A stretch of 64,000 nt of DNA from an uncultured Planctomycetia bacterium (GCA_964415355.1 CAYPYS010000001.1:1361-65360); one strand, 5' to 3'. Numbered from the stretch's first letter, positions 1-61,821 are shown. Translations and numbers: made by a program. Notes: generated by a model from the letters alone, not told the origin.

Positions 1-1
1 G

Positions 2-358: not shown

Positions 359-428
359 ATGACGGGATTCGAACCCGCGACCCCTAGAACCACAATCTAG
401 TGCTCTATCCAACTGAGCTACATCTACC
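350..428 (-). tRNA. tRNA-His (anticodon GTG) with encoded G-1 and CCA
   Basis: The reverse complement folds as a cloverleaf with acceptor GTAGATG/CATCTAC, anticodon stem CTAGA/TCTAG and loop TTGTGGT. A TTCGAAT T-loop and a 3' CCA are present. Confidence 0.8.
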
Positions 429-436
429 ACAAAATC

Positions 437-1366: not shown

Positions 1367-1377
1367 AAATATAAAAA

Positions 1378-1454
1378 TGGCGTCCCTGGCCTGATTCGAA
1401 CAGGCGACCCCCTGCTTAGAAGGCAGATGCTCTATCCAGCTGAGCTACAGGGAC
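1378..1454 (-). tRNA. tRNA-Arg (anticodon TCT)
   Basis: The reverse complement GTCCCTGTAGCTCAGCTGGATAGAGCATCTGCCTTCTAAGCAGGGGGTCGCCTGTTCGAATCAGGCCAGGGACGCCA folds as a cloverleaf. The anticodon loop is CTTCTAA. Confidence 0.8.
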
Positions 1455-1469
1455 ACCTCTTTCTCGAAT

Positions 1470-1547
1470 TGGTCGGGGCGGCTGGACTCGAACCAGCGAC
1501 CCCCTGCTCCCAAAGCAGGTGCTCTAGCCAAACTGAGCCACGCCCCG
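1470..1547 (-). tRNA. tRNA-Pro (anticodon TGG)
   Basis: The reverse complement CGGGGCGTGGCTCAGTTTGGCTAGAGCACCTGCTTTGGGAGCAGGGGGTCGCTGGTTCGAGTCCAGCCGCCCCGACCA folds as a cloverleaf. The anticodon loop is TTTGGGA. Confidence 0.8.
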
Positions 1548-1596
1548 TACCATTTAATCTTATAATTTTACCTTAAGTTAATGCTTTTGACAATCC

Positions 1597-1635
1597 CTAA
1601 CTTTACACTTTAACGTTGTTGAAATGTAAAGTTAG
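1597..1635. repeat. 39-bp intergenic palindromic repeat, copy 1 (orientation B: ...CTTTAACGTTGTTGAAATG...)
   Basis: CTAACTTTACACTTTAACGTTGTTGAAATGTAAAGTTAG. It supplies the rdgB stop codon. Confidence 0.9.
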
Positions 1636-2223
1636 GTAGCTCTTTATGATATCTTTTGACTTTATTAAGGCCTTGCTTCTGTGGCTAATTTTATTTTTCT
1701 TTCTTAGGCCCATCTGGGCAAATGTTTTTTTATTTCCGTTGGGGATAAAAACTGGGTCATAGCCAAATCCTGTCTTTCCAGCTGGCTTAAAACCTATCCT
1801 GCCATCGCATTTCCCTTCTGCAAGACCTATTATTTTGCCTCTGTCCGCAACAGCTATCACGCATCTGAATCTGGCCTTTCTCTTTGCAGAAGGAACGCCT
1901 TCGAGCAACCTTAATAATTTACTATTATTACTTTTATAAGTGGCACCTTTACCTGAAAAGCGCGCTGAATAAACGCCAGGCTTGTTTCCTATAGCAGCGA
2001 CCTCTAGCCCGGAATCATCCGCAATTACAAGTCTTTTCAAAAATCGCGAGACCTGAAGCGCTTTTTTCTTTGCGTTGCCCTCAAGAGTATTCCTGTCTTC
2101 CTTTACTTCCGGCACATCTTTAAAGCCGTCTAAAGACAGGACTTTTACAGGAAGACCTTTCAAAAGAGTTTTTATTTCTTTGAGTTTGTCTTTGTTCCTT
2201 GTGGCTATAATGAGTTCTGTCAT
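1603..2223 (-). CDS. rdgB: dITP/XTP pyrophosphatase (RdgB/HAM1 family)
   Basis: The N-terminus [17 protein letters not shown] and the motifs IADDSGLEV and FGYDPVF match RdgB. The last residues and the stop codon are supplied by repeat copy 1. Confidence 0.85.
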   Translation of the reverse strand: MTELIIATRNKDKLKEIKTLLKGLPVKVLSLDGFKDVPEVKEDRNTLEGNAKKKALQVSRFLKRLVIADDSGLEVAAIGNKPGVYSARFSGKGATYKSNNSKLLRLLEGVPSAKRKARFRCVIAVADRGKIIGLAEGKCDGRIGFKPAGKTGFGYDPVFIPNGNKKTFAQMGLRKKNKISHRSKALIKSKDIIKSYLTLHFNNVKV

Positions 2224-2945
2224 TATAAAGCTAATTTTATGATCTTTTTCTGAGCAGCAACCAGACTATCAATGCCTTTTTTTGCAAGCGATACCAGCTT
2301 ATCTAGATTTTTTCTGGGAAAAGGTGTCTTTTCTGCAGTACCCTGCACCTCAACCAATCTCCCATCGTCAGTCATAATGACGTTCATGTCAACATCTGCC
2401 TTTGAGTCCTCTTCATAATCCAGATCCAGGCATAATTTGCCGTCGATGATCCCAAGGCTCACTGCAGCAACATAATTCTTTATCGGGATTTCGGCTATCG
2501 CGCCGCTTTTCTTCAACGCAAGAAGCGCGCCTGAAAGCGCGATAAAGCTGCCTGTTATGCTCGCGGTGCGCGTCCCGCCGTCAGCCTGTATTACGTCACA
2601 ATCTATCCAGACAGTCCTCTCGCCTAATCTCTCAAGATCCACTACCGAGCGAAGGCTTCTCCCTATTAGACGCTGTATTTCCTGCGTGCGGCCGCTCTGT
2701 TTTCCGCGCGAGGCCTCTCTGGGCGTCCTTGTCTTGCACGAGCGCGGCAGCATTCCGTATTCCGCGGTTATCCAGCCCGATCCCGTATTTCTCAAAAAAG
2801 GCGGAACCTTTTCCTCTACTGAAGCGCTGCAGATGACCCTCGTATTGCCGACCTCTATCATGCAGGAACCTTCTGCAAATTCCATTACGTCTCTTTTGAT
2901 CTTAACCTTTCTCATCTCATCGAGTCTTCGTCCATCGCTCCTCAT
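2223..2945 (-). CDS. rph: ribonuclease PH
   Basis: MRSDGRR...[15 protein letters not shown]...[18 protein letters not shown] aligns with Rph. The track start ([11 protein letters not shown]...) is a repeat-derived artefact, so the start is moved to MRSDGRR. Confidence 0.9.
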
Positions 2946-2958
2946 ATTCCCCCTCACC

Positions 2959-2996
2959 TTAAGTTTACTTTTAACATTGTTGAAAGTTAACTTAAG
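2959..2996. repeat. 39-bp repeat, copy 2 (degenerate right arm, B)
   Basis: TTAAGTTTACTTTTAACATTGTTGAAAGTTAACTTAAG lies between rph and the fumarase beta gene. Confidence 0.7.
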
Positions 2997-3489
2997 CAAT
3001 AGATACTATGGCCGGGAAATCTTCTATCTCTAGCCTATGCATTGCCTCAGTGCCAAGATCCCCGTAAGCCACCACTTTATTCGCTTTAACCTTTTCCTGT
3101 AAATACGCACCCGCGCCGCCGATGGTCACAAAATATACTGCGCCGAATCTTTTTATTGCAGAAACTATTTCCTTGGACCTCCTGCCCTTGCCTATCATGC
3201 CGATAAGGCCCTGCTTCAATAAAGACAATGTAAATGGGTCCATCCTGGAGCTGGTTGTCGGCCCGCATGAACCAATAACTTCCCCTGCCCTCTTCGGCGT
3301 AGGTCCTGTATAATATATAGTCTCGCCTTTTATAGAAACCGGTAATTTTTTGTGGGCAAGAATAGCCTCGACCAATCTTTTATGAGCGGCATCGCGCGCT
3401 GTCAATAGAGAACCGCTTAGCAAAACCTCCTCGCGCGGCTTTAAACTCTTTACAATATTTTTCGTTAAAGGTAAATATATCTTTCGCAC
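2992..3489 (-). CDS. class I fumarate hydratase, beta subunit (Fe-S hydro-lyase, tartrate/fumarate family C-terminal domain)
   Basis: [14 protein letters not shown]...YYTGPTP...[11 protein letters not shown] resembles FumB-C/TtdB. Confidence 0.8.
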
Positions 3490-4328
3490 TATATCACCTT
3501 ACGTGCCCCTCTTGTAGCATGACAGCTAATATTTACCGCAACAGGCAAACCCGCTATATGAGTAGGATACGTCAATATGCTTACTGAAAAAGCAGTCGTT
3601 TTTCCGCCCATGCCCATTGGCCCTATCTTTGTTTTGTTGATTTTTTCTAATACGCGCTTTTCCATTTTTGCGAAATGAGCCTTTTTACTGCGCTCGCCTG
3701 CATTCCTGAAAATAGCTTCCTTGGAAAGCGATGTCGCTTTATCAAGCGTCCCGCCTATGCCGATCCCTACATAAAGCGGCGGACATGCATTTGCGCCATG
3801 TTCCTTGACTGAATCTACGATAAATTTTTCAATAAGAGCTGCTGAATCAGTAGGCCTGAACATCTTTGTCCTCGAGATATTCTCGCAGCCGAATCCTTTT
3901 ATGGCAACCTCTATATGTATCTTATTGCCTGGCACGATTCGATAGTATATCAGCGACGGTAGATTTGTGCCGGTATTCTTTCTAATTAAAGGATCTTTTA
4001 CGACAGACTTTCTAAAACACCCGGCTTTGTAAGCATCGCGTACGCCTTTTTCTATTGCCTTTTCAATGTCGCCTCTTACGCTTACAGACTGGCCTACTTT
4101 AATATAAACCGCGACCATGCCTGTATCCTGGCATATAGGAAGTCTTTTCTTCTTTGCCAATAGCGCATTTTTAAGGATGATATCGAGTATACGCCTTGAC
4201 ATCCCGGACTCTTTGTTTCTAGCCCGCTTCAATGCGTCCAGGACATCTCTCCTCAGCTCGACATTTGCTTTTACGCATAACCCTCTGACCGCATCTGTAA
4301 TAACCTTGCTATTTACGATTCTCATCAT
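3489..4328 (-). CDS. class I fumarate hydratase, alpha subunit (Fe-S hydro-lyase, tartrate/fumarate family N-terminal domain)
   Basis: The LPICQDTGMVAVY motif matches the alpha subunit. The gene is adjacent to and overlaps the beta subunit gene. Confidence 0.8.
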   Translation of the reverse strand: MMRIVNSKVITDAVRGLCVKANVELRRDVLDALKRARNKESGMSRRILDIILKNALLAKKKRLPICQDTGMVAVYIKVGQSVSVRGDIEKAIEKGVRDAYKAGCFRKSVVKDPLIRKNTGTNLPSLIYYRIVPGNKIHIEVAIKGFGCENISRTKMFRPTDSAALIEKFIVDSVKEHGANACPPLYVGIGIGGTLDKATSLSKEAIFRNAGERSKKAHFAKMEKRVLEKINKTKIGPMGMGGKTTAFSVSILTYPTHIAGLPVAVNISCHATRGARKVI

Positions 4329-4996
4329 CTCACCCCCAGGATCTTGTGGACCTGCGGTATAATAGTGACTCTGCCCAGCTCTTTCTTTGCGTTTCTAAAA
4401 AAATCCGGTAGCGAAGCAATATTCTCGACCTTTCCATTATAACTTACCGGCTGCAGAATAAAAAGAATATCTTTATCTATGCCCCTGACAATAGAAACAG
4501 CCTTTTCAATATCTTCTAAAGACGTTTCAGGAGTGACGACTATTTTTATAAATACTTCTTTTTTTATTGCTTCTTTTAAAAAATCTAAATGTTCCTGCCA
4601 GTAAACCCCGAGCCCGGTAGAGCTGGGGAGCTTCATATCCATGCTTATTATATCAATGTAATCCAATACATCCAAAAGTCTGTCTTTCATCGTGCCGTTC
4701 GTCTCAAGATAGACCTGCGCGCCTTTCTCTTTTAAAACCGGCAGGATCTCTTTTAAAAAATCAGCCTGCAATAAAGGCTCTCCTCCGGTCAGGGAAACAG
4801 TGTTTTTTTCTTCTCTTGCAATGTTTTCGATAACTGCATCAGCGTCATATTCAAAAAAACCTGTCTTTTCTTTTTCGTCGCAGAATCCACATCCAAGGTT
4901 ACACCCCGAAAACCTTACAAAGACATGCTCATGACCCACGTAAGGCCCTTCACCCTGAATAGAGCTATATATCTCTGTGATCCTCGCCCGTCTCAT
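4325..4996 (-). CDS. queE: 7-carboxy-7-deazaguanine synthase (radical SAM)
   Basis: MRRARITEIYSSIQGEGPYVGHEHVFVRFSGCNLGCGFCD matches QueE. The start is moved downstream of the repeat-derived MLKCKVKDGWI extension. AGGA lies 8 nt upstream of that ATG. Confidence 0.85.
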   Translation of the reverse strand: MRRARITEIYSSIQGEGPYVGHEHVFVRFSGCNLGCGFCDEKEKTGFFEYDADAVIENIAREEKNTVSLTGGEPLLQADFLKEILPVLKEKGAQVYLETNGTMKDRLLDVLDYIDIISMDMKLPSSTGLGVYWQEHLDFLKEAIKKEVFIKIVVTPETSLEDIEKAVSIVRGIDKDILFILQPVSYNGKVENIASLPDFFRNAKKELGRVTIIPQVHKILGVR

Positions 4997-5010
4997 AATC
5001 CATCCATCCT

Positions 5011-5048
5011 TAACTTTACATTTCAACAACGTTAAAATGTAAAGTTAG
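5011..5048. repeat. 39-bp repeat, copy 3 (orientation A: ...CATTTCAACAACGTTAAAG...)
   Basis: It lies between queC (stop inside the repeat) and queE. Confidence 0.9.
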
Positions 5049-5665
5049 CAAAACGCGGCCATGCGCAGCCTGCAGGCGTCACATTTACCGCAAGGCTTGC
5101 TCCCGCCTTTATAGCAAGACCATGTAAGCTTAAAAGGCACCTTTAGTTTCCTGCCGATATTCACAATGTCTTTTTTTGTCTTATACAAAAGCGGGGTTTC
5201 TATCTTTATGCCTTTTAATTTTGTCGCCTTCTTTAATAATTCGTTAAATCTCTTATAGTATGCAGGTCTACAATCAGGATATCCTGAAAAATCCCTGGCA
5301 TTCGCTCCGATAAAGATCGTTTTTGCGCCTATTGCCTCAGCAAAAGAAAGCGCAAAGCTTAAGAATATAGTATTCCTCGCCGCTACATATGTCGAAGGTA
5401 TCTTCTTGGATGAAAGTTTTCTGCGCTCAGGAACAGAGATATTCCTGTCTAAAAGAGCGCTTCTCTTCCACGGAAGGTCTATTTTAAGAAGACAGTATTC
5501 AAATCCCTGCCTTCGCGCCAATCTTTTCGCAGAAATTATCTCTTTTTTATGGCGTTGGCCATAATCAAAGACAAGACAATACGCCTTATAGCCTCTCTGT
5601 TTGGCCATATAAAGCGTGACAGCCGAATCCATGCCGCCTGAAAGTAACACCACTGCCTTTTTCAT
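5045..5665 (-). CDS. queC: 7-cyano-7-deazaguanine synthase
   Basis: MKKAVVLLSGGMDS...CGKCDACRLR matches QueC. The stop codon is supplied by a repeat copy. Confidence 0.9.
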   Translation of the reverse strand: MKKAVVLLSGGMDSAVTLYMAKQRGYKAYCLVFDYGQRHKKEIISAKRLARRQGFEYCLLKIDLPWKRSALLDRNISVPERRKLSSKKIPSTYVAARNTIFLSFALSFAEAIGAKTIFIGANARDFSGYPDCRPAYYKRFNELLKKATKLKGIKIETPLLYKTKKDIVNIGRKLKVPFKLTWSCYKGGSKPCGKCDACRLRMAAFC

Positions 5666-5673
5666 AATATCCC

Positions 5674-5712
5674 CTAACTTTACATTTCAACAACGTTAAA
5701 GTGTAAACTTAG
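5674..5712. repeat. 39-bp repeat, copy 4 (A)
   Basis: It lies between xerC/D and queC. Confidence 0.9.
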
Positions 5713-6584
5713 GCCCTGGGATGCGCTTTGTCGTAAATAGCCTTTAAACGTTCTGTCGTAACGTGAGTATATATCTGGGTCGTGGATAGATTAGCATGCC
5801 CCAGAAGTTCCTGGACTGACCTCAGATCCGCGCCTCTGTCTAAAAGGTGAGTCGCAAAAGAATGCCTTAGAGAATGCGGCGACACCTTTTCGTCCAAGCT
5901 AGTCTTCCGTATATATTTATCTACGATCCTGCGCACTGCCCTGTCACTAATACGCCTGCCGCTTTTATTCAGAAAAATAGCCTTTTTCTCTTTTAGTTTA
6001 GATGGATTGAGCTTTTCAAGATACTTGCGCATAGCCCTCACTGCCTTATCCCCTATAGGCGCAAGTCTTTCCTTTTTTCCTTTGCCGTAAACCTTAAGAA
6101 TCCCTCCGATAAAATCCACGTTTTCCTTATTAAGCCCAACAAGTTCGCTCACCCTCAAACCACTTGAATAAAGCGTCTCGAGTATCGCCCTGTCTCTGAG
6201 ACCGTAGACATCAGTCGCATCAGGCGATTCGATCAGCTTTACGACCTGGTCTGCGTCTAAAAAAATAGGCAGGCGCTTGTCAATCTTTGGAGTCTGTAGC
6301 CCGCTGGCGGGATTGGCCTTTACATAGCCTTCTCTGCAAAGAAACCTAAAAAAACTCCTCAAGCACGCCATCTTTCTCGCTACCGTCCTCTTTGAAAATT
6401 TTTTCTCCTTCATGCGCGCCAGGAACAATCTGATATCAGTGTGAGAAATATTTTCAAGCGGCTTCTCTTTGAGAGAATTATCAAATTCCTTCAAGTCTAT
6501 CTGGTAATTTGTAACAGTGTACTGCGAGGCGTTTTTTTCAACCTTAAGATAATTTATAAATTTCTGAATATAGCGCTCTAACAT
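5709..6584 (-). CDS. tyrosine site-specific recombinase, XerC/XerD family
   Basis: The C-terminal catalytic region HSLRHSFATHLLDRGADLRSVQELLGHANLSTTQIYTHV matches the family. Confidence 0.85.
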   Translation of the reverse strand: MLERYIQKFINYLKVEKNASQYTVTNYQIDLKEFDNSLKEKPLENISHTDIRLFLARMKEKKFSKRTVARKMACLRSFFRFLCREGYVKANPASGLQTPKIDKRLPIFLDADQVVKLIESPDATDVYGLRDRAILETLYSSGLRVSELVGLNKENVDFIGGILKVYGKGKKERLAPIGDKAVRAMRKYLEKLNPSKLKEKKAIFLNKSGRRISDRAVRRIVDKYIRKTSLDEKVSPHSLRHSFATHLLDRGADLRSVQELLGHANLSTTQIYTHVTTERLKAIYDKAHPRA

Positions 6585-6607
6585 ATTTTGTTCTTTACGA
6601 ACAATGC

Positions 6608-6682
6608 CTAACTTTACACTTTAACATTGTTGAAAACTTGTGCCGCCATACATTAAGAATGACATGCGGTATGTAAAGTTAT
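6608..6682. repeat. 39-bp repeat, copy 5, split by a ~34-bp insertion (left part 6608-6635, right arm ATGTAAAGTTAT 6671-6682)
   Basis: CTAACTTTACACTTTAACATTGTTGAAAA, then a 34-nt insert, then ATGTAAAGTTAT. The topA stop codon lies at the right edge. Confidence 0.6.
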
Positions 6683-8649
6683 CATTCTTTAGGGGGCAAT
6701 TTTCGCGAGATATGTGTGCATTTGGGATAATTAGAGCAGCCGTAGAAATGGCGTCCTCTTTTGGAGCGTTTTTCAATAAGCATGCCGCCGCAACCTGGTT
6801 CAGGACACCTGACGCCGCTCGGCAATGACTTTGCGAATCTGCAGTTTGGAAAATCAGAGCAACTCAAAAACCTGCCGAGTCTGCCCCATTTTATAACCAT
6901 GTGTTTCCCGCATTTCTCGCAGACCTCAGAGGTCTTAACCGCCTCCCCCTTGACCTTCCTCATGTTTTCCTTGGCATGCGTAAGGTCTTTCTCGAAAGGA
7001 TGATAAAACCTCTTTAATACACTAACCCTCTTCTCTTCGCCTTCTTCTATCTTGTCCAGCTCTTCTTCCATCTCGGCCGTGAATTTTAAATCCAGTATAT
7101 CCGCAAAGCTCTTCATCAAAAGGTCTGTCACCACCATACCTAATTCTGACGGATGAAAATAGCCTTCCCTTCTCTTTACATAGTTGCGCGCGGCAATAGT
7201 ATATATAATAGGTGCGTATGTGCTGGGCCTGCCAATGCCGTATTCCTCTAGCGCCTTTACCAGCGATGCGTCTGAAAACCTACCGGGAGGCTTTGTAAAG
7301 TGTTGACTCGGGTCCAGCTTTATGACTTCTGGTTTATCCCCGACCTCTAATGAAGGGAGGATCTTTTTATCCTCTTTCGCCTTTTTCTCTTCATATTCTT
7401 CATAAACAACGCTAAAGCCGGCAAAAACCTTCTGTGACCCCTGCGCCTTAAAGAGAAACCTTCCTGCCTTTATCGCTACCACGACCACCGAAAACACTGC
7501 CGGTGACATCTGGCTCGATATAAACCGATTCCATATAAGAGTGTAAAGTTTTAACTGGTCCTCGGTCAAATACTTCTTTATAGCTTTCGGTTCTCTCAAC
7601 GGCAGAGAAGGCCTTATTGCTTCATGCGCTTCCTGCGCGCTCTTTTTCGACTTAAACTTATTCGGCACATGAGGCAGATGTTCTTTGCTATATTTATTAT
7701 GGATATATTTTCTCGCGGCCTCCATCGAATCCTTAGACAACCTGACCGCATCAGTTCGCATGTAAGTAATAAGACCTACATTGCCTTCTTCTCCTATCTC
7801 CAGGCCCTCATATAACTGCTGGGCAGTACGCATGGTCTTTGATGCCGAGAATCTAAGCTTATTAAAGGCATCTTGCTGAAGTTTGCTCGTAGTAAAAGGC
7901 GGCTGGGCATATTTTTTCTTTTCTTTTTTCTGCACATCGCTGACTATAAATTCTTCTTTTTTCAATTCAGAAACAATGTCCGAAGCGCGCTCCTTGCCAG
8001 AGATTTCTATTTTTTTGCCTTCGATCTTGTCAAGCTTAGCAATAAAAACTGTATGTTTTTTTAGATGCGCTTCTATGTCCCAATATTCTTTAGGCACAAA
8101 CGCCTTTATCTCGTTCTCTCTTTCTACGATGATCCTGACCGCGACCGACTGCACCCTCCCGGCTGAAAGTCCTCTTCCTACTTTTCTCCACAATAAAGGA
8201 CTTATGCTGTAGCCGACGAGCCTGTCTAGGATCCTGCGCGCCTGCTGTGCGTCGACCTTGTTGACATCTATGTCTCCTGGGCGTTTAAACGCCTCTTCTA
8301 TCGCGCTCTTTGTGATCTCATGAAACACGACCCTCTTTATATTTTTCTTCTTTCCTAAAAGATTATAAAGATGCCAGCTTATTGCCTCTCCTTCTCTATC
8401 AGGATCAGTCGCGAGAAAGATCTTGTCCTTGCCCTTGGCCTCTTTCTTGAGATCTGTTATTGTCTTTTTCTTCTTCGGTATAGCTATATAGTTTGGCTCA
8501 AAATCTTTTTCAATATCTATGCCCATCTTGGAACCAGGCAAGTCCATGACATGGCCCATCGAAGAAGTCACGACAAAATCCTTGCCAAGGATCTTATTTA
8601 TCGTATTTGCCTTTGCTGGAGATTCGACTATCACAAGCGACTTTGGCAT
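6682..8649 (-). CDS. topA: DNA topoisomerase I
   Basis: MPKSLVIVESPAKANTI is the TOPRIM N-terminus. The protein is 655 aa with C-terminal zinc ribbons (CEKCGKHMV..., CPEPGCGG...). The stop is TGA. Confidence 0.9.
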   Translation of the reverse strand: MPKSLVIVESPAKANTINKILGKDFVVTSSMGHVMDLPGSKMGIDIEKDFEPNYIAIPKKKKTITDLKKEAKGKDKIFLATDPDREGEAISWHLYNLLGKKKNIKRVVFHEITKSAIEEAFKRPGDIDVNKVDAQQARRILDRLVGYSISPLLWRKVGRGLSAGRVQSVAVRIIVERENEIKAFVPKEYWDIEAHLKKHTVFIAKLDKIEGKKIEISGKERASDIVSELKKEEFIVSDVQKKEKKKYAQPPFTTSKLQQDAFNKLRFSASKTMRTAQQLYEGLEIGEEGNVGLITYMRTDAVRLSKDSMEAARKYIHNKYSKEHLPHVPNKFKSKKSAQEAHEAIRPSLPLREPKAIKKYLTEDQLKLYTLIWNRFISSQMSPAVFSVVVVAIKAGRFLFKAQGSQKVFAGFSVVYEEYEEKKAKEDKKILPSLEVGDKPEVIKLDPSQHFTKPPGRFSDASLVKALEEYGIGRPSTYAPIIYTIAARNYVKRREGYFHPSELGMVVTDLLMKSFADILDLKFTAEMEEELDKIEEGEEKRVSVLKRFYHPFEKDLTHAKENMRKVKGEAVKTSEVCEKCGKHMVIKWGRLGRFLSCSDFPNCRFAKSLPSGVRCPEPGCGGMLIEKRSKRGRHFYGCSNYPKCTHISRKLPPKE

Positions 8650-8688
8650 AAAACATCCTCCGTTGAGCCTTCTTGCTTTTAGCAGGCT

Positions 8689-8727
8689 CTAACTTTACAT
8701 TTCAACAACGTTAAAGTGTAAAGTTAG
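8689..8727. repeat. 39-bp repeat, copy 6 (A)
   Basis: It lies between dprA and topA. Confidence 0.9.
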
Positions 8728-8736
8728 CCGCCTCTA

Positions 8737-9825: not shown

Positions 9826-9836
9826 CGCTCACCCTG

Positions 9837-9876
9837 CTAACTTTACACTTTAACGTTGTTGAAATGTAAAGTTAAG
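9837..9876. repeat. 39-bp repeat, copy 7 (B)
   Basis: It lies between aroK and dprA. Confidence 0.9.
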
Positions 9877-10480: not shown

Positions 10481-10521
10481 CTTAACTTTACACTTTAACA
10501 TTGTTGAAATGTATACTTAAG
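10481..10521. repeat. 39-bp repeat, copy 8 (B, variant right arm GTATACTTAAG)
   Basis: It contains the hycI stop. Confidence 0.85.
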
Positions 10522-11565: not shown

Positions 11566-11604
11566 CTAACTTTACATTTCAACAACGTTAAAGTGTAAAC
11601 TTAG
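11566..11604. repeat. 39-bp repeat, copy 9 (A)
   Basis: It lies inside the hydrogenase operon, between the MrpG-like and NuoI-like genes. Confidence 0.9.
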
Positions 11605-14624: not shown

Positions 14625-15106
14625 TTCTCTTCAGACCCTCTATCGATTCTCAAAAGCACAAGAGTAACCACTATAATAAACAGTCCCGAGCCTACTTTAA
14701 AGGCGATCGCAATATTGGATAAAGGTATCAGGCCAGAGCTAAAAAGCCTGAAAAGTTCTCCCTTGGCTGCAAAATTCAAAAAGAAATATCCGCCGGTTGC
14801 CAGCCCAAGGATACCAATGGTAATAAACATTATCGCGCCCAAGCTCTCGAAAAATGAAGCTACCTTCTGGTCCACTTTTTTAAAAGCTGCTTCTTTTCCG
14901 AACGCCAGCATGATGTGTATAAAAGAGAGCGCTATGATCACGCCACCTGCGAATCCGCCGCCAGGGCTTATGTGGCCGTGCGCGACGATGTACACGCCGA
15001 AAAGCAGTATCAGTCCCACTGTCAACCGCGTGATCGTCTTTACTATTAGTGTCATTCCCTTTTCTTGCTCTCTCATAAAACTGCCCCTAACTTTACTTTT
15101 CAACAA
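14621..15106 (-). CDS. Mrp subunit B-like (MnhB domain)
   Basis: MnhB-like (HGHISPGGGFAGGVIIA). Confidence 0.65.
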   Translation of the reverse strand: MLKSKVRGSFMREQEKGMTLIVKTITRLTVGLILLFGVYIVAHGHISPGGGFAGGVIIALSFIHIMLAFGKEAAFKKVDQKVASFFESLGAIMFITIGILGLATGGYFFLNFAAKGELFRLFSSGLIPLSNIAIAFKVGSGLFIIVVTLVLLRIDRGSEEK

Positions 15107-15125
15107 TGTTAAAATGTAAAGTTAC
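15087..15125. repeat. 39-bp repeat, copy 10 (A-like variant)
   Basis: CTAACTTTACTTTTCAACAATGTTAAAATGTAAAGTTAC lies between Mrp genes inside the operon. Confidence 0.85.
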
Positions 15126-19512: not shown

Positions 19513-19550
19513 CTAAGTTTACACTTTAACGTTGTTGAAATGTAAAGTTA
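19513..19550. repeat. 39-bp repeat, copy 11 (B)
   Basis: It lies between the NuoH-like and NuoB-like genes. Confidence 0.9.
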
Positions 19551-20952: not shown

Positions 20953-20991
20953 CTAACTTTACATTTCAACAACGTTAAAATGTAAAGTTAA
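20953..20991. repeat. 39-bp repeat, copy 12 (A)
   Basis: It lies between the AsrB-like gene and the ferredoxin gene. Confidence 0.9.
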
Positions 20992-23455: not shown

Positions 23456-23494
23456 CTAACTTTACATTTCAACAACGTTAAAGTGTAAAGTTAG
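23456..23494. repeat. 39-bp repeat, copy 13 (A)
   Basis: It lies between the UPF0280-like gene and the ferredoxin-NIL gene. Confidence 0.9.
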
Positions 23495-24233: not shown

Positions 24234-24272
24234 CTAACTTTACATTTCAACAACGTTAAAGTGTAAAGTTAG
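24234..24272. repeat. 39-bp repeat, copy 14 (A)
   Basis: It lies between hypA and the UPF0280-like gene. Confidence 0.9.
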
Positions 24273-26964: not shown

Positions 26965-27002
26965 TTAACTTTACATTTTAACGTTGTTGAAATGTAAAGT
27001 TA
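26965..27002. repeat. 39-bp repeat, copy 15 (B)
   Basis: It lies between hypF-C and hypC, next to GC hairpin copy 3. Confidence 0.9.
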
Positions 27003-28120: not shown

Positions 28121-28159
28121 CTAAGTTTACACTTTAACATTGTTGAAATGTAAAGTTAG
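28121..28159. repeat. 39-bp repeat, copy 16 (B)
   Basis: It lies between the MetE-like gene and hypF-C. Confidence 0.9.
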
Positions 28160-29228: not shown

Positions 29229-29268
29229 CTTAACTTTACACTTTAACGTTGTTGAAATGTAAAGTTAG
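29229..29268. repeat. 39-bp repeat, copy 17 (B), first of an inverted tandem pair
   Basis: CTTAACTTTACACTTTAACGTTGTTGAAATGTAAAGTTAG. Confidence 0.9.
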
Positions 29269-31367: not shown

Positions 31368-31406
31368 CTAACTTTACACTTCAACAATGTTAAAGTGTAA
31401 AGTTAG
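31368..31406. repeat. 39-bp repeat, copy 19 (A), first of an inverted tandem pair
   Basis: It lies between the BioU-candidate gene and bioF. Confidence 0.9.
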
Positions 31407-31444
31407 CTAAGTTTACTTTTAACAATGTTGAAATGTAAAGTTAG
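31407..31444. repeat. 39-bp repeat, copy 20 (B), second of the inverted tandem pair
   Basis: CTAAGTTTACTTTTAACAATGTTGAAATGTAAAGTTAG. Confidence 0.9.
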
Positions 31445-32397
31445 CGCAGGATCATTGGCATGAAGTCAGTGGAACCGAACATGCCGTATATTTTATGTTG
31501 CTTAAGCCATAGCGCGCGCTTCATATACCCGAGGGCAGGACCCACGACATTGGCTGCCATGGATGTCTCGTCGCCAAGTATAAACCTATGGCTAGATTTT
31601 TTACCTTCGAATGTCCTGCCTGTCAGGGTCATCGTCGTAGAAACAGGTTTTTTTGCACACCTCGTATCCATCACGCCGCCCACCGAAACCTTCTTCAGTG
31701 AATCCACGACCCCTGTATTCTTTAGCAATATATCGTCGGCGTGCTCCATTTCGCGAAGCACAAGCTTCCCCTTAGTTCTATCGAGCAGCTTATCGACTTC
31801 TGTGTCTGACATGCGCTTTGCCTTTTCAACCGTGTAACCCGGAAGATGCGCTATATCCTCCCTGATAGTGGCCCTGTACGCGTCCCAATTCGAAATACCA
31901 ACGCCCCACCATATATTCACATCATCGACCTCTGCAAATGACTGGGCTGCGAGAACCGCAGCGGCAGACAAAAGACCAGGCGTCGCGCCACAGCCGGCGA
32001 TATATACGCTATTGTTCTTTTTTAGATCATTGTCCAGCTTCATCATTAATTTAATTGCCGCGGTGCGTTTCAAAGCACACGTATATACGCCGCCATACCC
32101 AGCCTTAATAAACCGCTTCACCACGCCGGGAATGAACTCATTCGGGAGATTCGGAAGCGCCACAAAGACTCCATCGAACTTGTTCTTTAATTTTATAATC
32201 TCTCCTATGGAATCATTTGAGGGTTTGAGATTTTTTAAATCTTTTACGGTAATACCTTTTTGTGAATACAGGAACCCGCCGGAATCACAGATCGCAACCA
32301 CCTTTGCCTCTTTCTTTTTCTCTACGACATCCAGACAGGCCTTGCCTAACCCACCAGCCCCCAAAACCGCAATTTTCATCTCCTTAATCTTCTCCAT
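31441..32397 (-). CDS. NAD(P)-binding Rossmann-fold protein embedded in the bio operon; candidate BioU-type replacement for the missing bioA (inference)
   Basis: A GxGxxG fold is present (KIAVLGAGGLGKA). The gene lies between bioB and bioF on the same strand. The start is moved to MEKIKEM. Confidence 0.5.
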   Translation of the reverse strand: MEKIKEMKIAVLGAGGLGKACLDVVEKKKEAKVVAICDSGGFLYSQKGITVKDLKNLKPSNDSIGEIIKLKNKFDGVFVALPNLPNEFIPGVVKRFIKAGYGGVYTCALKRTAAIKLMMKLDNDLKKNNSVYIAGCGATPGLLSAAAVLAAQSFAEVDDVNIWWGVGISNWDAYRATIREDIAHLPGYTVEKAKRMSDTEVDKLLDRTKGKLVLREMEHADDILLKNTGVVDSLKKVSVGGVMDTRCAKKPVSTTMTLTGRTFEGKKSSHRFILGDETSMAANVVGPALGYMKRALWLKQHKIYGMFGSTDFMPMILR

Positions 32398-32413: not shown

Positions 32414-32452
32414 CTAACTTTACATTTCAACAATGTTAAAGTGTAAAGTTAG
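32414..32452. repeat. 39-bp repeat, copy 21 (A)
   Basis: It lies between bioB and the BioU-candidate gene. Confidence 0.9.
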
Positions 32453-33435: not shown

Positions 33436-33474
33436 CTAACTTTACATTTTAACGTTGTTGAAATGTAAAGTTAG
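33436..33474. repeat. 39-bp repeat, copy 22 (B)
   Basis: It lies immediately upstream of bioB. Confidence 0.9.
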
Positions 33475-36034: not shown

Positions 36035-36072
36035 CTAACTTTACATTTCAACAATGTTAAAGTGTAAAGTTA
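36035..36072. repeat. 39-bp repeat, copy 23 (A)
   Basis: It lies between the two secretin genes. Confidence 0.9.
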
Positions 36073-38796
36073 CTGTTCGCGTATTATCTTTTCGTCTATG
36101 GGCACGCTGGCAACCATGTTCTCTTCTTCGCCCAGGACACTAGCAGTCACGAATATCAATAAATTTCTGCGCTCTACATTATCCGTCTTTTTTCTGAATA
36201 ACCCGCCTACAAATGGAAGGTCGCCCAACACAGGAACCTTTGTCTTTATATTGGTATTTGTCTCCTTTATGAGTCCTCCCATTACAATCGTCTCTCCGCT
36301 ATCGATTATAACACTGGTACTTAAATTCCTTGTCTTAAACTGAGGTATAGAAACCTCTCCCGAATAAGAGAATGTACCAGAATCCTCGCTGACCTCCGGA
36401 GTCAACGCCAATGTTACAGTCTTCTTGTCTGCCCCCACGCTAGGCTTCACATGTAAAAGTATTCCAACGTCCCTGGTAACAAAATCCTGAGGGATATTCG
36501 CCCACTCTGTCTCGCCTGCGTCATCAAAATCTCCATCACCGTTTATGTCAAACTGCACCAGGCTGACCTCATACCTGGTAGGATAGATAAACTCATCTAT
36601 TACTTCTATCGTGGCTGTTTGATTATTTAATGTAGTTATCCTCGGAGCGGATAAAGTCTTTACATTTTGTTTTTCTTTTAAGGCATGCATTACAAACTGA
36701 AACTGCGGATGACTCAGTATCCCTTGATACGTCAGATTAAAACCTTCGGTTGCACGGGTGAAGCTCGAAAAATCCACGCCACTCCCCGAAGCAAACCCAT
36801 GTAAGTTCTGCTTTGAGTTATTTTGCTTAGCGCCCCAGTCGCTGTTTAATTTCCAATCGATGCCCAGCTCATCCACGTCCGTGACCTGCACCTCTAAAAA
36901 TCTCGCTTCAATCAATACCTGTACAGGCGTTACGTCAAGATTATAAAGCAGGTTTTCTACGATCTCTAAATTCGAGGGTATATTGCTTATGATAAGCGCG
37001 CCTGTCCTGTCATCGAGCGTCAACTTTGAATCCTTCGGCCAATCTACCGCGTTTTCAAGTATGTCCTTTACGGTACTGACCTCTGAAGACGAGTCGCCCT
37101 CTTCGCCGGAACTCCCTGAAAGTTCAGCAAATCTACCAATGCCTTGATTCATAAAATAAACCCTGGTCTCTACTTCTTCATTGTCCAGTTCTTCCTTAGT
37201 AGCTACCCATACAGCATCCTCTTCTATTCTGTAAACAAGGTCCTGGGATTTCAGTACATACCTCAGCGCCTCCTCAAGAGGCATGTCTTTTATCTTTATT
37301 GTAACCTTTTTCTCGGCCATATCGATATCGCTCGAAGGTATTATATTGACCCCTGTCGCCTCGGATAGAAAATTCAACACATAATCAAGTTCCACATCTT
37401 TAAAATCTACGCTTAACGGTATTTTTAATCTCTTCCTGATCTCCGGGACCTTTACCAGAGACACTATTTTTTTCTCTTTCTCTAAAATGCCGATCTTTTC
37501 ATCAGGTATAATATGCTTCTTGGCTATTTCCAAAAGCATCTTTGCTTCTACTATCTCGCGAGCCTTTTTAAAGGCCTCTTCCTCTTTTTTTATCTTCTGC
37601 TTATCTACATAATCCTTAACATCCTTAAACCTTCTGTTTTCCGGAAATTCGGCCATCGCTGTCCCGAGCATCTCTTCGGCATCCTCAAACTGCTCCTCCG
37701 CAACATGCACCCTTATGGCCTTCAGCAGCTCTTCTATTCTTGTAATCCTCTCTCTTAATTGCTGCTCCCTGAGCCTCTTTTCAAAAACTACCTTAAGCCT
37801 CTCCTTTTCCCTCTCTTTTTTAGCGCGCTCGGCCTCTTTTATCCTGTCTTCCCGCTCTTTCTCTATCTTTGCGCGCCGCGCCGCCTCCATCTTTGCCATG
37901 ACCGCCCGCTCTTCTTCCCTCTTTATCTCTTTTTGGGCGGATTCAATATAATATTCCGACCTGGAAACCAGGTCATTATCAGGGTCTAATTCCTTTACCT
38001 TTCTGAATTCTGCTATGGCCGTTGGATAATCTCTCATCTTATAATAACTCAGGGCCCTCTCGTATGCACTTTTTGTCTCCCGGGCCAATCTATGTTCTTG
38101 TTTCTTTCTTTCCTGCTCTATCGCCTTAAGGATCATCTCTTCTTCCTGCAATGCCCTCTTGCGAGCTTCTTCCCTCTTTATCTCTATATTCGCTTTTTGT
38201 ATATAAGATTCGGCCTCGGTTACAAAACGACTTTCTGGATCCAGATTTTTTATTTTTTTAAAATTCATTACCGCAAGAGCATATTTTTCATCAATATAAT
38301 ACTCGAGGGCCTTTTCATATGTATTTTCTATTTCCCGCGCGAGCTTTCTTTGTCCCTGCTCTATCGCCTTTAGCCTGTTTTCTTCCTCGACCAAAGCCCT
38401 CTCTTGCGCCTGTTGCTTTGCCAGCTCTTCTTCTTTAGCTATGCGCTCCGCCTCGCTTATTACGTCCTCCTCCATCCTCTGCCATCTCCTGTCCTCTAAT
38501 ACGCTCATCTCTTTTATTCTGGACCTGGACTTATCGATATATATCTCTGCGAAAGGCGTAAAATAAGACTCTCCCTGCGTCTTTTCCATCTCTATGATAT
38601 TCTCAAAAACAGAAATCGCCTCTTTATATCTTCCTGTCTCAAACAAGGACATCGCCTTTTCAAAATACTTCTTCAAATCCACTTTTGAAACCGAGATATT
38701 TTTGTTACTATATAGAGCGGTTTTGGCCAAGGCAAACGCCTGCCCGTTCGATAACAAAAGTGACAATATTAATATTATGCTTAAAATCTTTTTCAT
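36070..38796 (-). CDS. secretin (PilQ/GspD family) with ~600-aa N-terminal coiled-coil/TPR-like repeat extension
   Basis: The C-terminal 450 aa are paralogous to the adjacent secretin (PVLGDLPFVGGLFRKKTDNVERRNLLIFVTASVL). The N-terminal region has an internally repeated module (YEKALEYY...IKREEARKRALQEEE). Confidence 0.8.
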   Translation of the reverse strand: MKKILSIILILSLLLSNGQAFALAKTALYSNKNISVSKVDLKKYFEKAMSLFETGRYKEAISVFENIIEMEKTQGESYFTPFAEIYIDKSRSRIKEMSVLEDRRWQRMEEDVISEAERIAKEEELAKQQAQERALVEEENRLKAIEQGQRKLAREIENTYEKALEYYIDEKYALAVMNFKKIKNLDPESRFVTEAESYIQKANIEIKREEARKRALQEEEMILKAIEQERKKQEHRLARETKSAYERALSYYKMRDYPTAIAEFRKVKELDPDNDLVSRSEYYIESAQKEIKREEERAVMAKMEAARRAKIEKEREDRIKEAERAKKEREKERLKVVFEKRLREQQLRERITRIEELLKAIRVHVAEEQFEDAEEMLGTAMAEFPENRRFKDVKDYVDKQKIKKEEEAFKKAREIVEAKMLLEIAKKHIIPDEKIGILEKEKKIVSLVKVPEIRKRLKIPLSVDFKDVELDYVLNFLSEATGVNIIPSSDIDMAEKKVTIKIKDMPLEEALRYVLKSQDLVYRIEEDAVWVATKEELDNEEVETRVYFMNQGIGRFAELSGSSGEEGDSSSEVSTVKDILENAVDWPKDSKLTLDDRTGALIISNIPSNLEIVENLLYNLDVTPVQVLIEARFLEVQVTDVDELGIDWKLNSDWGAKQNNSKQNLHGFASGSGVDFSSFTRATEGFNLTYQGILSHPQFQFVMHALKEKQNVKTLSAPRITTLNNQTATIEVIDEFIYPTRYEVSLVQFDINGDGDFDDAGETEWANIPQDFVTRDVGILLHVKPSVGADKKTVTLALTPEVSEDSGTFSYSGEVSIPQFKTRNLSTSVIIDSGETIVMGGLIKETNTNIKTKVPVLGDLPFVGGLFRKKTDNVERRNLLIFVTASVLGEEENMVASVPIDEKIIREQ

Positions 38797-41912: not shown

Positions 41913-41951
41913 ACTAACTTTACATTTCAACAATGTTAAAGTGTAAACTTA
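41913..41951. repeat. 39-bp repeat, copy 24 (A)
   Basis: It lies between the 607-aa secreted protein gene and the HTH gene. Confidence 0.9.
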
Positions 41952-41961
41952 CGCGGGTGGG

Positions 41962-43802: not shown

Positions 43803-43841
43803 CTAACTTTACATTTTAACGTTGTTGAAATGTAAAGTTAG
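43803..43841. repeat. 39-bp repeat, copy 25 (B)
   Basis: It lies between the giant GspK-like gene and the 607-aa protein gene. Confidence 0.9.
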
Positions 43842-47053: not shown

Positions 47054-47092
47054 CTAACTTTACATTTCAACAACGTTAAAGTGTAAAGTTAG
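47054..47092. repeat. 39-bp repeat, copy 26 (A)
   Basis: It lies upstream of the GspK-like gene, next to the terminator. Confidence 0.9.
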
Positions 47093-47948: not shown

Positions 47949-47985
47949 ATAAAATGCCTAAGCTTACTTTCAACAATGTTAAATG
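47949..47985. repeat. 39-bp repeat, copy 27 (degenerate, A-like)
   Basis: CTAAGCTTACTTTCAACAATGTTAAATGTAAACTTAG lies next to GC hairpin copy 4. Confidence 0.75.
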
Positions 47986-47990
47986 TAAAC

Positions 47991-49196
47991 TTAGGTGGAG
48001 AGGAAGGATTTGACTTTTTTAAAGATGTCTTCGGGCTTGATATTTTTTAAGCAAATGCCTTCTTTGCACGGCGATTTTCTGTGATTATAGACATTCAGGC
48101 AGGGACTGCAGACCAAATCTGAATCTATAGATATTTTGTCGCTATCTCCTTCTCCGTATAAACGAGACGTCTCTGGTCCGAAAAGTATTATGACTTTTAT
48201 GGGAACCAGGGTCGAAAAATGAGCCGGTCCGCTGTCGCTCGTCACCAATAAATCTGCGACACAGTACAAAGTCAAAAGTTCTCTCAGCGAAGTCTCTCCG
48301 GCGAGAGAAATCGCGTCCCCCATCCTATATGCCAGCATCTTGCCCTTTTCTTTTTCTCCGGCAACGCCTGTAATGATAATGGTCGCGCGGGGAAATTCTT
48401 GCAAAATCATCCTCGCCAGTTTCACATAGTTTTCTTCAGGCCAACGCCTCACCTGCAACAGATCATCCATGTCAGGATTCAAAAGTACTATTGGGCTGGT
48501 CAGGTTTGACTTTTTCACGCCCTCGATTTTTTTTACCAGCGCACTTTTCTCGCTTTCACTGGGGGAAAAAACAGGAAGTCCTTCGGTCACATCCGGGGTC
48601 TTAAAGCACATGGGTTTATTATCAGGCGACGGGCAATGATTAAGGGCCTCTACCAATGTTGCGAACAAGACCCTTGTGTGCAGGTATGGATTATATACAA
48701 GCCTGTGAGTAAAAAGATCTCCTCTATAAGGGCCTTCGCAGGTGAACAAGTGAAACCCGACTCTCTTATCAGCCCCGGAAAGATACGAAAGGATAGCAGA
48801 GCCCCTGGAGAAAAATTCCATATCTATGGCAGCGTCTATTTTTTCTTTCCTGATTCTCGCAAGTGCCTTTATCAAGGACAAAATCATGCCGCCAGGAGAG
48901 CTCGGATCTATCTCTATTATATTTTGCGACGGCAGTATATCGAATATATCCAATATATGGCGGTTTTCTTTAAAGACTAAAAAATAAAGATTATCTTTCC
49001 CCACCATACCAGCTGCCTTTTTTAACGCCTGATAGGCGAGCATCGTGGAACCCTGCTCTATTAATTTTATGAAGAGGATTTTGGAGGGATGGCCTGTGTC
49101 TTCGTTATCTTTTTTAAGATTTCTACACACCGTGAGCAAAAAACAAAACACGCTGCCGACGTTCCTGTCTAACCACCGAATAACTCCCTGATTCAT
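47991..49196 (-). CDS. glycosyltransferase family 9 (heptosyltransferase-like)
   Basis: The GT9 fold is present (ILFIKLIEQGS...GPETSRLYGEGD). The start is moved to MNQGVIRW past the repeat artefact. Confidence 0.65.
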   Translation of the reverse strand: MNQGVIRWLDRNVGSVFCFLLTVCRNLKKDNEDTGHPSKILFIKLIEQGSTMLAYQALKKAAGMVGKDNLYFLVFKENRHILDIFDILPSQNIIEIDPSSPGGMILSLIKALARIRKEKIDAAIDMEFFSRGSAILSYLSGADKRVGFHLFTCEGPYRGDLFTHRLVYNPYLHTRVLFATLVEALNHCPSPDNKPMCFKTPDVTEGLPVFSPSESEKSALVKKIEGVKKSNLTSPIVLLNPDMDDLLQVRRWPEENYVKLARMILQEFPRATIIITGVAGEKEKGKMLAYRMGDAISLAGETSLRELLTLYCVADLLVTSDSGPAHFSTLVPIKVIILFGPETSRLYGEGDSDKISIDSDLVCSPCLNVYNHRKSPCKEGICLKNIKPEDIFKKVKSFLST

Positions 49197-49233: not shown

Positions 49234-49272
49234 TTAACTTTACACTTTAACATTGTTGAAGTGTATACTTAG
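49234..49272. repeat. 39-bp repeat, copy 28 (B variant), first of an inverted tandem pair
   Basis: TTAACTTTACACTTTAACATTGTTGAAGTGTATACTTAG. Confidence 0.85.
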
Positions 49273-49311
49273 GTAACTTTACATTTCAACAATGTTAAAG
49301 TGTAAAGTTAG
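49273..49311. repeat. 39-bp repeat, copy 29 (A), second of the inverted tandem pair
   Basis: GTAACTTTACATTTCAACAATGTTAAAGTGTAAAGTTAG. Confidence 0.9.
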
Positions 49312-57372: not shown

Positions 57373-57411
57373 CTAACTTTACATTTCAACAACGTTAAAG
57401 TGTAAAGTTAG
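57373..57411. repeat. 39-bp repeat, copy 30 (A)
   Basis: It lies between the GAF histidine kinase gene and pilB. Confidence 0.9.
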
Positions 57412-58616: not shown

Positions 58617-58655
58617 CCTAACTTTACACTTTAACGTTGTTGAAATGTAAAGTTA
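58617..58655. repeat. 39-bp repeat, copy 31 (B)
   Basis: It lies between the first RR gene and the GAF kinase gene. Confidence 0.9.
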
Positions 58656-59418: not shown

Positions 59419-59457
59419 CTAACTTTACATTTCAACAACGTTAAAATGTAAAGTTAG
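59419..59457. repeat. 39-bp repeat, copy 32 (A)
   Basis: It lies between the RR2 and RR3 genes. Confidence 0.9.
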
Positions 59458-61378: not shown

Positions 61379-61417
61379 CTAAGTTTACACTTTAACATTG
61401 TTGAAGTGTAAACTTAG
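61379..61417. repeat. 39-bp repeat, copy 33 (B variant)
   Basis: CTAAGTTTACACTTTAACATTGTTGAAGTGTAAACTTAG lies between the RR remnant and the histidine kinase gene. Confidence 0.85.
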
Positions 61418-61782: not shown

Positions 61783-61821
61783 TTAACTTTACATTTCAAC
61801 AACGTTAAAGTGTAAAGTTAA
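61783..61821. repeat. 39-bp repeat, copy 34 (A)
   Basis: It lies downstream of the double-REC regulator gene. Confidence 0.9.

Follow-up and report, generated by a model that had tools for sequence, protein, structure and literature searches.

The 38 nucleotides (nt) at positions 5011-5048 (TAACTTTACATTTCAACAACGTTAAAATGTAAAGTTAG) of a 64,000-nt stretch deposited as an uncultured Planctomycetia bacterium (GCA_964415355.1; the whole stretch is referred to as the window) are an exact consensus copy of a palindromic repeat (consensus TAACTTTACATTTCAACAAYGTTAAARTGTAAAGTTAG). We regard this repeat with good confidence as a non-autonomous mobile palindrome of the class that includes repetitive extragenic palindromic (REP) sequences and miniature inverted-repeat transposable elements, or MITEs, multiplied in one clade of Candidatus Omnitrophota. 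The window contains 25 copies with at most three mismatches (0.00 expected from shuffles), and a profile built from these near-exact copies recovered nine more that are diverged or partial. The resulting 34 copies (38-43 nt) occupy 31 loci, or one per 1.9 kb, and all of them lie at gene ends or in spacers, so that about half of the gene junctions (~46%) carry the repeat (Table 1). Nine further copies are found in the 10 kb beyond the window on the same contig.

The window is contained in contig Ga0118727_1000707 (85.6 kb) of Joint Genome Institute metagenome 3300009128, and the same strain is present in five other samples at 99.85-100% identity without indels. The same 10-20 kb, repeats included, were assembled independently in six samples. 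All named protein matches of the window are to Candidatus Omnitrophota. The repeat is also present in the metagenome-assembled genome (MAG) GCA_964445715.1, which is labelled 'Planctomycetia' and syntenic with the window, and in 48 short contigs of metagenome JACKQG01. No match was found in viral contigs, and at the Rfam gathering score no family was detected at any copy, only three tRNAs being matched in the window. We give next to no credence to chance similarity or faulty assembly as the origin of the repeat. The metagenomic source is the sole point in favour of this reading, and it is opposed by the lack of any match in shuffles, by the six independent and near-identical assemblies, and by the occurrence of the family in a separate MAG and another metagenome.

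Occupied and empty sites at stop codons

Presence and absence of the element were observed at orthologous sites, using syntenic loci in relatives with 76-90% protein identity (related sequences are cited by labels such as L012; subfamilies A, B and B' are described below). At the xerC|queC junction, L012 and L016 are empty and read GCA TAG followed by the spacer (AAAG), L025 is empty with a TGA stop, L026 has a B-type copy, and the window reads GCC TA[A..T]TAG GGG. The site at the end of rdgB is found in four states in four genomes: an A-type copy in the window (TAC CTA[A..T]TAG GGATTG), the same element inverted in L012, a B'-type copy in L026, and nothing in L015 (TAC TTAG AGATTG). Through this insertion the last 11 residues of RdgB were replaced by a tail of equal length. 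The fumC|rph junction is empty in L015 (GCTTAAGG) and carries B-type copies in the window and L026, in opposite orientations and with CTTAAG flanking both sides. At dprA|topA the window alone has an element (L025, L026, and L016 have none), and the copy after topA, which is split in the window, is intact in L013. At the site of the AroK-stop copy, L026 carries a B'-type copy and the two genes of L025 overlap with no element. In L017, 21 kb of syntenic sequence contain no copy of the element and have TAA or TAG stops at the positions of the window's elements; for example, the empty abpE site reads ATG TAA AGTGGAGGG, and the HypF-C orthologue ends in ...AVLAGA*. The abpE, NADHdh, 82-aa, and metE stops are empty sites in L017 and L018. 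Across relatives, the empty sites have a single TA, usually within a TAG or TAA stop codon. One copy, at hycI|aroK, is in the same orientation in three genomes (window, L025, and L026), where it encodes the end of HycI (LK(Y/F)T(F/L)QQC*).

At 19 of the 31 loci, the upstream gene ends on the terminal TAA of the element. Three other genes (RdgB, HycI, and HypF-C) enter the element in another frame and end 8-10 codons inside, and at the remaining nine loci the stop lies 0-418 nt ahead of the element. Nearly all genes of the window are on the minus strand, and 22 of the 67 minus-strand open reading frames (ORFs), about a third, end on a stop supplied by the element; the original prediction of at least ten such genes was thus conservative. 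Among the ORFs that reach an element, 19 of 22 do so in the frame of the terminal TAA, where one third would be expected (P = 4e-7). Another MAG and another metagenome together supply 86 independent copies with the same bias (27 terminal, 18 deeper, P = 2e-4), a count made with a cruder ORF filter that let in some shadow ORFs. Where the terminal TAA is used (19 loci), the far-side TTA is followed by G in 15 cases and by A in four; genes with no element have TAG (11) and TAA (11) stops. CTAG is depleted in the window (65 observed, 109 expected under a Markov model), and the sites left are nearly all intragenic, with about six unoccupied sites outside genes and tRNAs.

The original prediction did not extend to the cause. 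The coincidence with stop codons is more than a matter of reading frame and would arise because a mobile element lands on the TA of TAG or TAA. We propose that the element lands on a TA dinucleotide, preferring CTAG and TTAA contexts. In a tightly packed genome with spacers of 0-20 nt, the tolerated TA would mostly be that of a stop codon or one among the bases before a ribosome-binding site, and insertions elsewhere would be removed by selection. Because the core of the element begins with A (and ends with T), the gene-side junction would read TA+A = TAA and rebuild the interrupted stop codon, and the original third base (G or A) would be carried to the far side, to leave ..TTAG or ..TTAA there. 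In the A+T-rich arms and the loop, TAA happens to be present in the other frames, which would limit a tail to only 8-10 residues. Placement would thereby be shaped by target choice together with purifying selection, whose shares are inseparable here. Tentatively, the repeat may be described as a minimal transposon homing on stop codons, the 34-nt core of which targets the TA of (C)TAG/TAA, rebuilds TAA, saturates about half of the junctions of a streamlined genome at almost no cost, and has become part of gene structure; it may also act as operon punctuation.

Table 1. Copies of the palindromic repeat in the window and the reading frames that end or begin in them.
Positions	Strand	Type	Upstream gene end	Downstream ORF or remark
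1597..1634	-	A-type	RdgB 10 codons in (...LTLHFNNVKV*), stop 1603-1605	
2950..2996	-	degenerate B-type (CTTAAGTTAAC..TAAACTTAAG)	FumC stop = terminal TAA 2992-2994	Rph over-extended to TTG 2999; true ATG 2945
5011..5048	+	A-type, exact consensus	QueC stop = terminal TAA 5045-5047 (minus strand)	QueE over-extended to TTG 5029; true ATG 4996
5675..5712	+	hybrid, one arm B-type base (AAGT/ACTT), other A-type	XerC stop = terminal TAA 5709-5711	
6606..6681	-	A-type, split after TAACTTTACAT by 35-nt insert	TopA TGA stop (6682-6684) abuts	
8690..8727	+	A-type	9 nt past DprA stop	
9837..9874	-	A-type	AroK stop = terminal TAA 9872-9874	
10482..10520	-	old diverged copy	encodes HycI last 8 residues (LKYTFQQC*), stop 10495-10497	
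11567..11604	+	A-type	MnhG-like gene stop = terminal TAA 11601-11603	
15088..15125	+	A-type	MbhD/E-like gene stop = terminal TAA 15122-15124	over-extended to TTG 15106 (LLKSKVRGSF-MREQ)
19513..19550	-	A-type	NADHdh-family gene stop = terminal TAA 19548-19550	
20954..20991	+	A-type	9 nt past TAG stop	ferredoxin ORF over-extended (MLKCKVRRGE-MKKLLID)
23457..23494	+	A-type	AbpE stop = terminal TAA 23491-23493	
24235..24272	+	A-type	HypA stop = terminal TAA 24269-24271	
26965..27002	-	A-type	HypF-C 10 codons in (...LTLHFNNVKM*)	
28121..28158	-	A-type	MetE-like gene stop = terminal TAA 28156-28158	over-extended (MLKCKLRCSLQ-MNYIK)
29230..29267	-	A-type, half of inverted doublet TTAG|CTAA		
29268..29305	+	diverged, other doublet half	82-aa gene stop = terminal TAA 29303-29305	
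31369..31406	+	A-type, half of inverted doublet		BioF over-extended
31408..31445	-	diverged, other doublet half	upstream gene stop = terminal TAA 31441-31443	
32415..32452	+	A-type	BioB stop = terminal TAA 32449-32451	over-extended (LLKCKVRIKGGD-MEKIK)
33436..33473	-	A-type	58 nt past LacI-family stop	in bioB leader
36036..36073	+	A-type	908-aa secretin stop = terminal TAA 36070-36072	
41914..41952	+	A-type	9 nt past TAA stop	
43803..43840	-	A-type, exact	1061-aa gene stop = terminal TAA 43838-43840	
47055..47092	+	A-type		just after terminator-like hairpin with T-run
47957..47996	+	diverged, indels	glycosyltransferase stop = terminal TAA 47991-47993	
49234..49272	-	diverged, half of inverted doublet		glycosyltransferase over-extended (MLKCKVKVEIP...)
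49274..49311	+	A-type, other doublet half	upstream gene stop = terminal TAA 49308-49310	
57374..57411	+	A-type	GAF histidine kinase stop = terminal TAA 57408-57410	
58618..58655	-	A-type	response regulator stop = terminal TAA 58653-58655	
59420..59457	+	A-type, exact	4 nt past TAA stop	
61379..61417	-	B-type arm bases		16 nt upstream of histidine kinase start; spurious + strand ORF (LLKCKLRDYF...) begins inside
61784..61821	+	A-type	14 nt past TAA stop	

Element structure and possible routes of spread

The core of the element is 34 nt long (ACTTTACAyTT-CAACAAyGTTA-AArTGTAAAGT) and always has TA on either side. There are three main subfamilies. A-type copies read (C)TAACTTTACAyTT - CAACAAyGTTA - AArTGTAAAGTTA(G) and B-type copies CTTAAGTTTACACTT..AAGTGTAAACTTAAG, and the third group comprises B' and B'' (GTTCACAC/GTGTGAAC and GTATAC arms). 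The termini are (C)TAAC..GTTA(G) or CTTAAG..CTTAAG, with no 5' foot of the GTAG/GTGG type. Terminal inverted repeats are present, with arms of 14-17 nt that are paired in 85% of cells. As RNA, the element is predicted to form a near-continuous hairpin (-16.6 to -21.3 kcal/mol, z-scores -6 to -8) that is stable in both orientations and has an apical loop of just 3 nt. Compensatory changes in the arms were counted over 71 copies, a number that reflects a few subfamily events rather than many independent ones: pair 10-40 is CG in 41 copies and GC in 21, pair 12-38 is UA in 63 and AU in 4, and pair 13-37 is UA in 66 and CG in 5. Pair 17-33 is mostly a T.G wobble, and this conserved T.G / A.C asymmetry tells the two strands apart. 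Inverted doublets were found at three of the 31 window loci and once in L027, and all four pairs abut directly. Single copies show no preferred orientation (12 forward, 16 reverse), and GC skew is uniform along the window.

Of 41 A-type copies, 40 have TA at both ends, and the next base outward is C in only 63% and G in only 61%. Given the single TA of the empty sites, TA would be duplicated on insertion, rather than one TA being carried by the element. Several observations weigh against the proposed explanation. In B-type copies the flanks C-T-TA..TA-A-G are ~90% conserved, the copy at L006 2054 has a compensatory TC..GA in place of the terminal TA..TA, and three doublets of the window have the junction TTAG|CTAA; judged from these sequences, this suggests that TA is part of the palindrome and not a duplicated target. 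A related family in L017 (TGCTTTACATTTTAGTCAATGACAAAAGTGTAAAGCA) is without TA termini and also without six-frame stops. There is no presence/absence polymorphism among the six samples of the same strain, and therefore all empty sites come from the relatives, in which the flanks have changed too; the base before TA differs between filled and empty sites. No transposase or REP-associated tyrosine transposase (RAYT) was detected in the window or the next 10 kb. As the ends are palindromic, a duplicated TA and a TA belonging to the element are indistinguishable, and the sequences agree equally well with duplication of TA and with an element that comes with one TA of its own and lands next to a second.

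The searches for a mobilising gene covered several regions. NCBIfam and Pfam scans of 20 window proteins returned only housekeeping functions and no PF01797, and the next 10 kb of the contig encode lipopolysaccharide and signalling genes with no transposase. The intervals between inverted copies in L051, L054, and L069 contain housekeeping genes (ABC transporters and an Etf-like protein), and no insertion sequence (IS) with matching ends (ACTTTACA..TGTAAAGT) was found in the DNA examined. The element is probably moved by a trans-acting enzyme encoded elsewhere, and its small size favours an enzyme whose substrate is a single-stranded hairpin or a cruciform.

One route, which we consider possible and short of probable, is REP-like: an HUH/Y1 (RAYT-type) or similar enzyme would recognise and move the single-stranded hairpin, inserting it beside a short target similar to the end of the element itself (..TAG, ..TTAG, or CTTAAG), with no true target duplication. 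The 38-43 nt of the element fall in the size range of REPs, and the near-complete hairpin with its 3-nt loop, the compensatory changes at the three arm pairs and in one terminal TA pair, and the asymmetry that distinguishes the strands at pair 17-33 are all consistent with such a substrate, as is the inversion of all four doublets, which is also seen in REPINs and BIMEs. Moreover, given the stiffness of DNA, ends 34 bp apart on a duplex could hardly be joined in a DDE transpososome. Other features do not match this route. The termini are CTAAC/GTTAG and there is no GTAG/GTGG head, PF01797 is absent from the window and the next 10 kb, and the doublets abut with no spacer. IS608-type single-strand elements do show orientation bias, and none is seen here under a uniform GC skew.

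It is also conceivable, and we put this forward tentatively, that the repeat is a minimal MITE of an IS630/Tc1-mariner-type IS, spread by cut-and-paste with TA target duplication and a preference for CTAG. IS630 inserts at CTAG and duplicates TA. The unvarying TA at either end, followed outward by a less conserved C..G or T..A, and the single TA at empty sites, would be expected from such an origin, as would the doublet at L027 798-875, which reads TA-el-TA-el-TA with the middle TA common to both copies. Longer relatives with the same termini also point in this direction; these are a 165-nt element of L017, which shares the arm core, and the longer, split copies at 6606-6681 in the window and in L018. 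TA termini, target duplications, and A+T-richness are typical of bacterial MITEs, and RUP, tied to IS630-Spn1 and TA targets, offers a precedent (PMC2229807). Against a MITE origin, the element is far under the usual 100-400 bp of MITEs with an IS-derived interior, with ~10 bp between the two terminal repeats; the longer relatives are rare, and no IS with matching ends was found. The B-type flanks are too conserved for target preference alone, and the TC..GA copy and the L017 family without TA ends are further points against it.

Possible hairpin function and errors in gene calls

Selection could have kept the hairpin as operon punctuation, a reading that is compatible with mobility and that we judge rather unlikely. 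Here the element would protect mRNA 3' ends, provide RNase processing sites, or uncouple translation, and its stops in six frames would be a selected safeguard. The stability of the hairpin in both orientations, the placement nearly always between a stop codon and the next ribosome-binding site, the arm pairing kept via compensatory change, and the retention of the hycI|aroK copy in three genomes agree with such a role, for which the effects of REP, ERIC, and Correia sequences on mRNA are precedents (PMC2229807). However, occupancy of a given junction differs greatly from one close relative to another, over half of the junctions lack the element, orientation is random, and the six-frame stops are expected in 8-16% of sequences of this composition and are lacking in the related L017 family. 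On the present sequences, operon punctuation or mRNA protection is possible and is not needed to explain the data.

The original prediction had emphasised that the element carries stop codons in all six frames. This holds for 29 of the 34 copies when one flanking base per side is counted, the five exceptions being partial copies or copies with indels. Of shuffled versions of the consensus, 7.8% have the same property, as do 15.5% of random palindromes matched in arm and loop composition and only 0.36% of random 39-mers from the window. It is thus not statistically remarkable for a palindrome with 72% A+T and is weak evidence alone. On the basis of the composition controls, we rejected a design for six-frame stops as the main explanation of the element.

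That the elements are rho-independent terminators is very improbable. Stem-loops do follow genes here, but the stem is A+T-rich and has no T-run, the usual flank is GGGG or GGAGG and then the next start codon, elements lie inside obvious operons (hyp, bio, and mbh/mrp), and a terminator scan picks up no copy in positions 1-20000. The copy in the bioB leader (33436..33473) is located between a promoter-like TTGACA-N17-TAAAAT, conserved in L017 (33475-33530 in the window), and the bioB ribosome-binding site. Separately, a conventional terminator-like hairpin with a T-run (GCGCTTCCTTTTAGGAGGCGCAGGGATTTTTTT) occurs on the minus strand at ~47100-47135 in the window, immediately upstream of copy 47055-47092, and illustrates the form that a genuine terminator takes in this genome.

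Element-derived sequence also distorts gene prediction. In one orientation (GTTGTTGAAATG) the loop offers a TTG start in frame with KCKV, and an ATG start is found only in the loop variant CAACAATG; therefore, callers that seek the longest ORF would begin the downstream gene inside the element. In this way eight real genes are over-extended under the first-start-after-stop (longest-ORF) rule, with starts at 2999, 5029, 15106, 20972, 28140, 31387, 32433, and 49253 and the peptide (M/L)LKCKV(R/K).... As had been predicted, these N-termini are artefacts, and the true starts lie a short distance outside the element, mostly 9-23 nt beyond it (some 31-106 nt away) and behind GGAGG/GGGG-like motifs that resemble Shine-Dalgarno sequences. 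The proposed alignment with orthologues bears out the short forms of all four proteins named: QueE (MRRARITE here, MKRARITE in the relative), Rph (MRSDGRR), BioF (MANLD here, MKDLD in the relative), and HypC (MCLAIP here, MCLGIP in the relative). Orthologues also confirm short starts for the NIL-domain gene, the Fer4_11 gene, the Oxidored_q6 (Q6) gene, and AbpE, and NCBIfam models span the trimmed proteins from their first residues. The errors are present in existing annotations, since the source contig's own gene calls give an RNase PH of 258 aa instead of 240, and the MetE-like protein of a relative is annotated with 383 aa instead of 344.

Three C-termini had been quoted as reading into the element. 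The ...LTLHFNNVKV end belongs to a real gene, RdgB, and this part stands; the ORFs ending in ...LTLHFNVVEM (26770-26997, +) and ...FTFQQR (20466-20978, +) are antisense shadows of hypC and the ferredoxin gene. In a relative with 90% protein identity (L012 1503-1530), the element at queC|queE is reduced to its right arm. QueC of L012 reads through this arm (...FRKCKVKDGL*) and overlaps the queE start, so that the 'artefact' frame lies within a real ORF.

Known repeat families and other palindromes

The kind of element is known, and we did not find a description of this family, of its host phylum as a host, of its density, or of the regular use of a terminal TAA as stop codon; a literature search on palindromic repeats in Omnitrophota returned nothing relevant. 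The REP, BIME, and REPIN sequences of proteobacteria, mobilised by RAYTs, are likewise non-autonomous, extragenic, imperfect palindromes of 20-40 nt in high copy number, with many copies right after stop codons, singly or in inverted pairs, and are co-transcribed as hairpins. Unlike these, the present element is A+T-rich with TA at both ends, has no GTAG-type head, no spacer within its pairs, and no RAYT gene in the window and the next 10 kb, and is far denser locally (one per 1.9 kb, ~46% of junctions). The MIRUs of mycobacteria are short repeats in operons whose ends overlap the upstream stop and downstream start codons. They differ in being direct tandem units of 40-100 bp with small ORFs, and not palindromic hairpins.

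RUP of Streptococcus pneumoniae resembles the element in its TA-associated termini and targets, intergenic location, A+T-richness, six-frame stops, and lack of autonomy (PMC2229807), but it is 107 bp long with 9-bp terminal repeats and has a partner, IS630-Spn1, whereas the present element is 38 bp, almost all stem, and no partner was found in the DNA examined. Stops in all frames are also reported for CIR and for the 155-bp form of the Correia element, which stays intergenic (PMC2229807). The Correia/NEMIS elements of Neisseria share terminal inverted repeats, TA termini with target duplication, and co-transcribed stem-loops with our repeat; they differ in length (105-155 bp), in their 24-bp terminal repeats and IHF site, and in that no systematic placement at stop codons has been reported. 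The element-encoded tails of RdgB, HycI, and HypF-C have a counterpart in QMITE1 and QMITE2 of Coxiella burnetii, whose insertions cover 1-50 bp at the 3' ends of functional genes and provide them with C-terminal residues or stops (PMC5896051). These are much longer, affect a minority of genes, and make no regular use of one terminal stop codon.

Omnitrophota genomes are almost only derived from metagenomes and annotated automatically, and public data contain false N-terminal extensions and antisense shadow ORFs caused by the repeat. Masking it ahead of gene calling would fix these errors. The repeat probably also fragments assemblies (the contigs of relatives are 1-8 kb), and it could be useful as a binning and strain-typing marker. 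A selfish element would have come to make up ~2% of a compact genome by inserting at the sites of least damage and restoring the stop codon that it splits. Of the region's genes, a third now depend on element-derived stops, and three proteins have element-encoded tails, one of them conserved in three genomes. In sister genomes, different palindrome families compete for the same junctions, which offers a natural system for the study of element turnover.

Several other repeats were observed. In relatives, the queC|queE spacer contains a G+C-rich palindrome headed by GTAG (TGTAGGGGAGCCTTAAGGCTCCCCTAC) where the window has an A-type element (L015 1556-1582, L025 ~5283-5310, and L026 ~6022-6050). 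In L026 its stem has compensatory changes from GCC/GGC to CAC/GTG, and the QueC stop is the TAA of the loop. This palindrome looks like a classical REP. A small palindrome (TTCGAGGTTTAACCTCGAA) in close relatives (L015 ~905-925 and L018 ~1722-1765) fills the xerC|queC and metE|hypF junctions, which are occupied by the main element in the window. Relatives also have a repeat of the form AATTCGCAC - hairpin (AACTTACG..CGTAAGTT) - GTGCTCATTAAAGGAGG (L012 3531-3640; L017 ~6860-6935 and 19930-19990), which ends in the Shine-Dalgarno sequence of the next gene.

Within the window there is a second, G+C-richer palindrome, ATTCCCGC-N4-GCGGGAAT, usually within GTCATTCCCGC..GCGGGAATGAC, at 22966-22985, 23001-23020, 26934-26953, and 47927-47946 (four copies, 0.06 expected). 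Two of these are just downstream of a copy of the main element, and similar sequences are found in L026 and L027. The 35-nt piece that splits the copy after topA (6636-6670) is ACCGCATGTCATTCTTAATGTATGGCGGCACAAGT. In L018 (523-541), the copy of a different locus is interrupted at that same position, and the piece there likewise starts with ACCGC. For the 35-nt piece, the alternatives are a nested insertion at a fixed target and a remnant of a longer progenitor; a second mobile family was considered and rejected, as the junction motif has just one occurrence in the window and one in L018.

Finally, a large serine recombinase gene (annotated on the contig as Resolvase/Recombinase/Zn_ribbon_recom) is located at the edge of the window (2-358, +) beside tRNA genes at 354-427, 1381-1454, and 1473-1547 (-), and these may mark the border of an integrated element. 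In MAG GCA_964445715.1 (L026 ~9700-10200), an insert with a gene for a PDDEXK_5 nuclease (136 aa) breaks up the second tRNA gene downstream of rdgB after ..CATCTGCCTTC.

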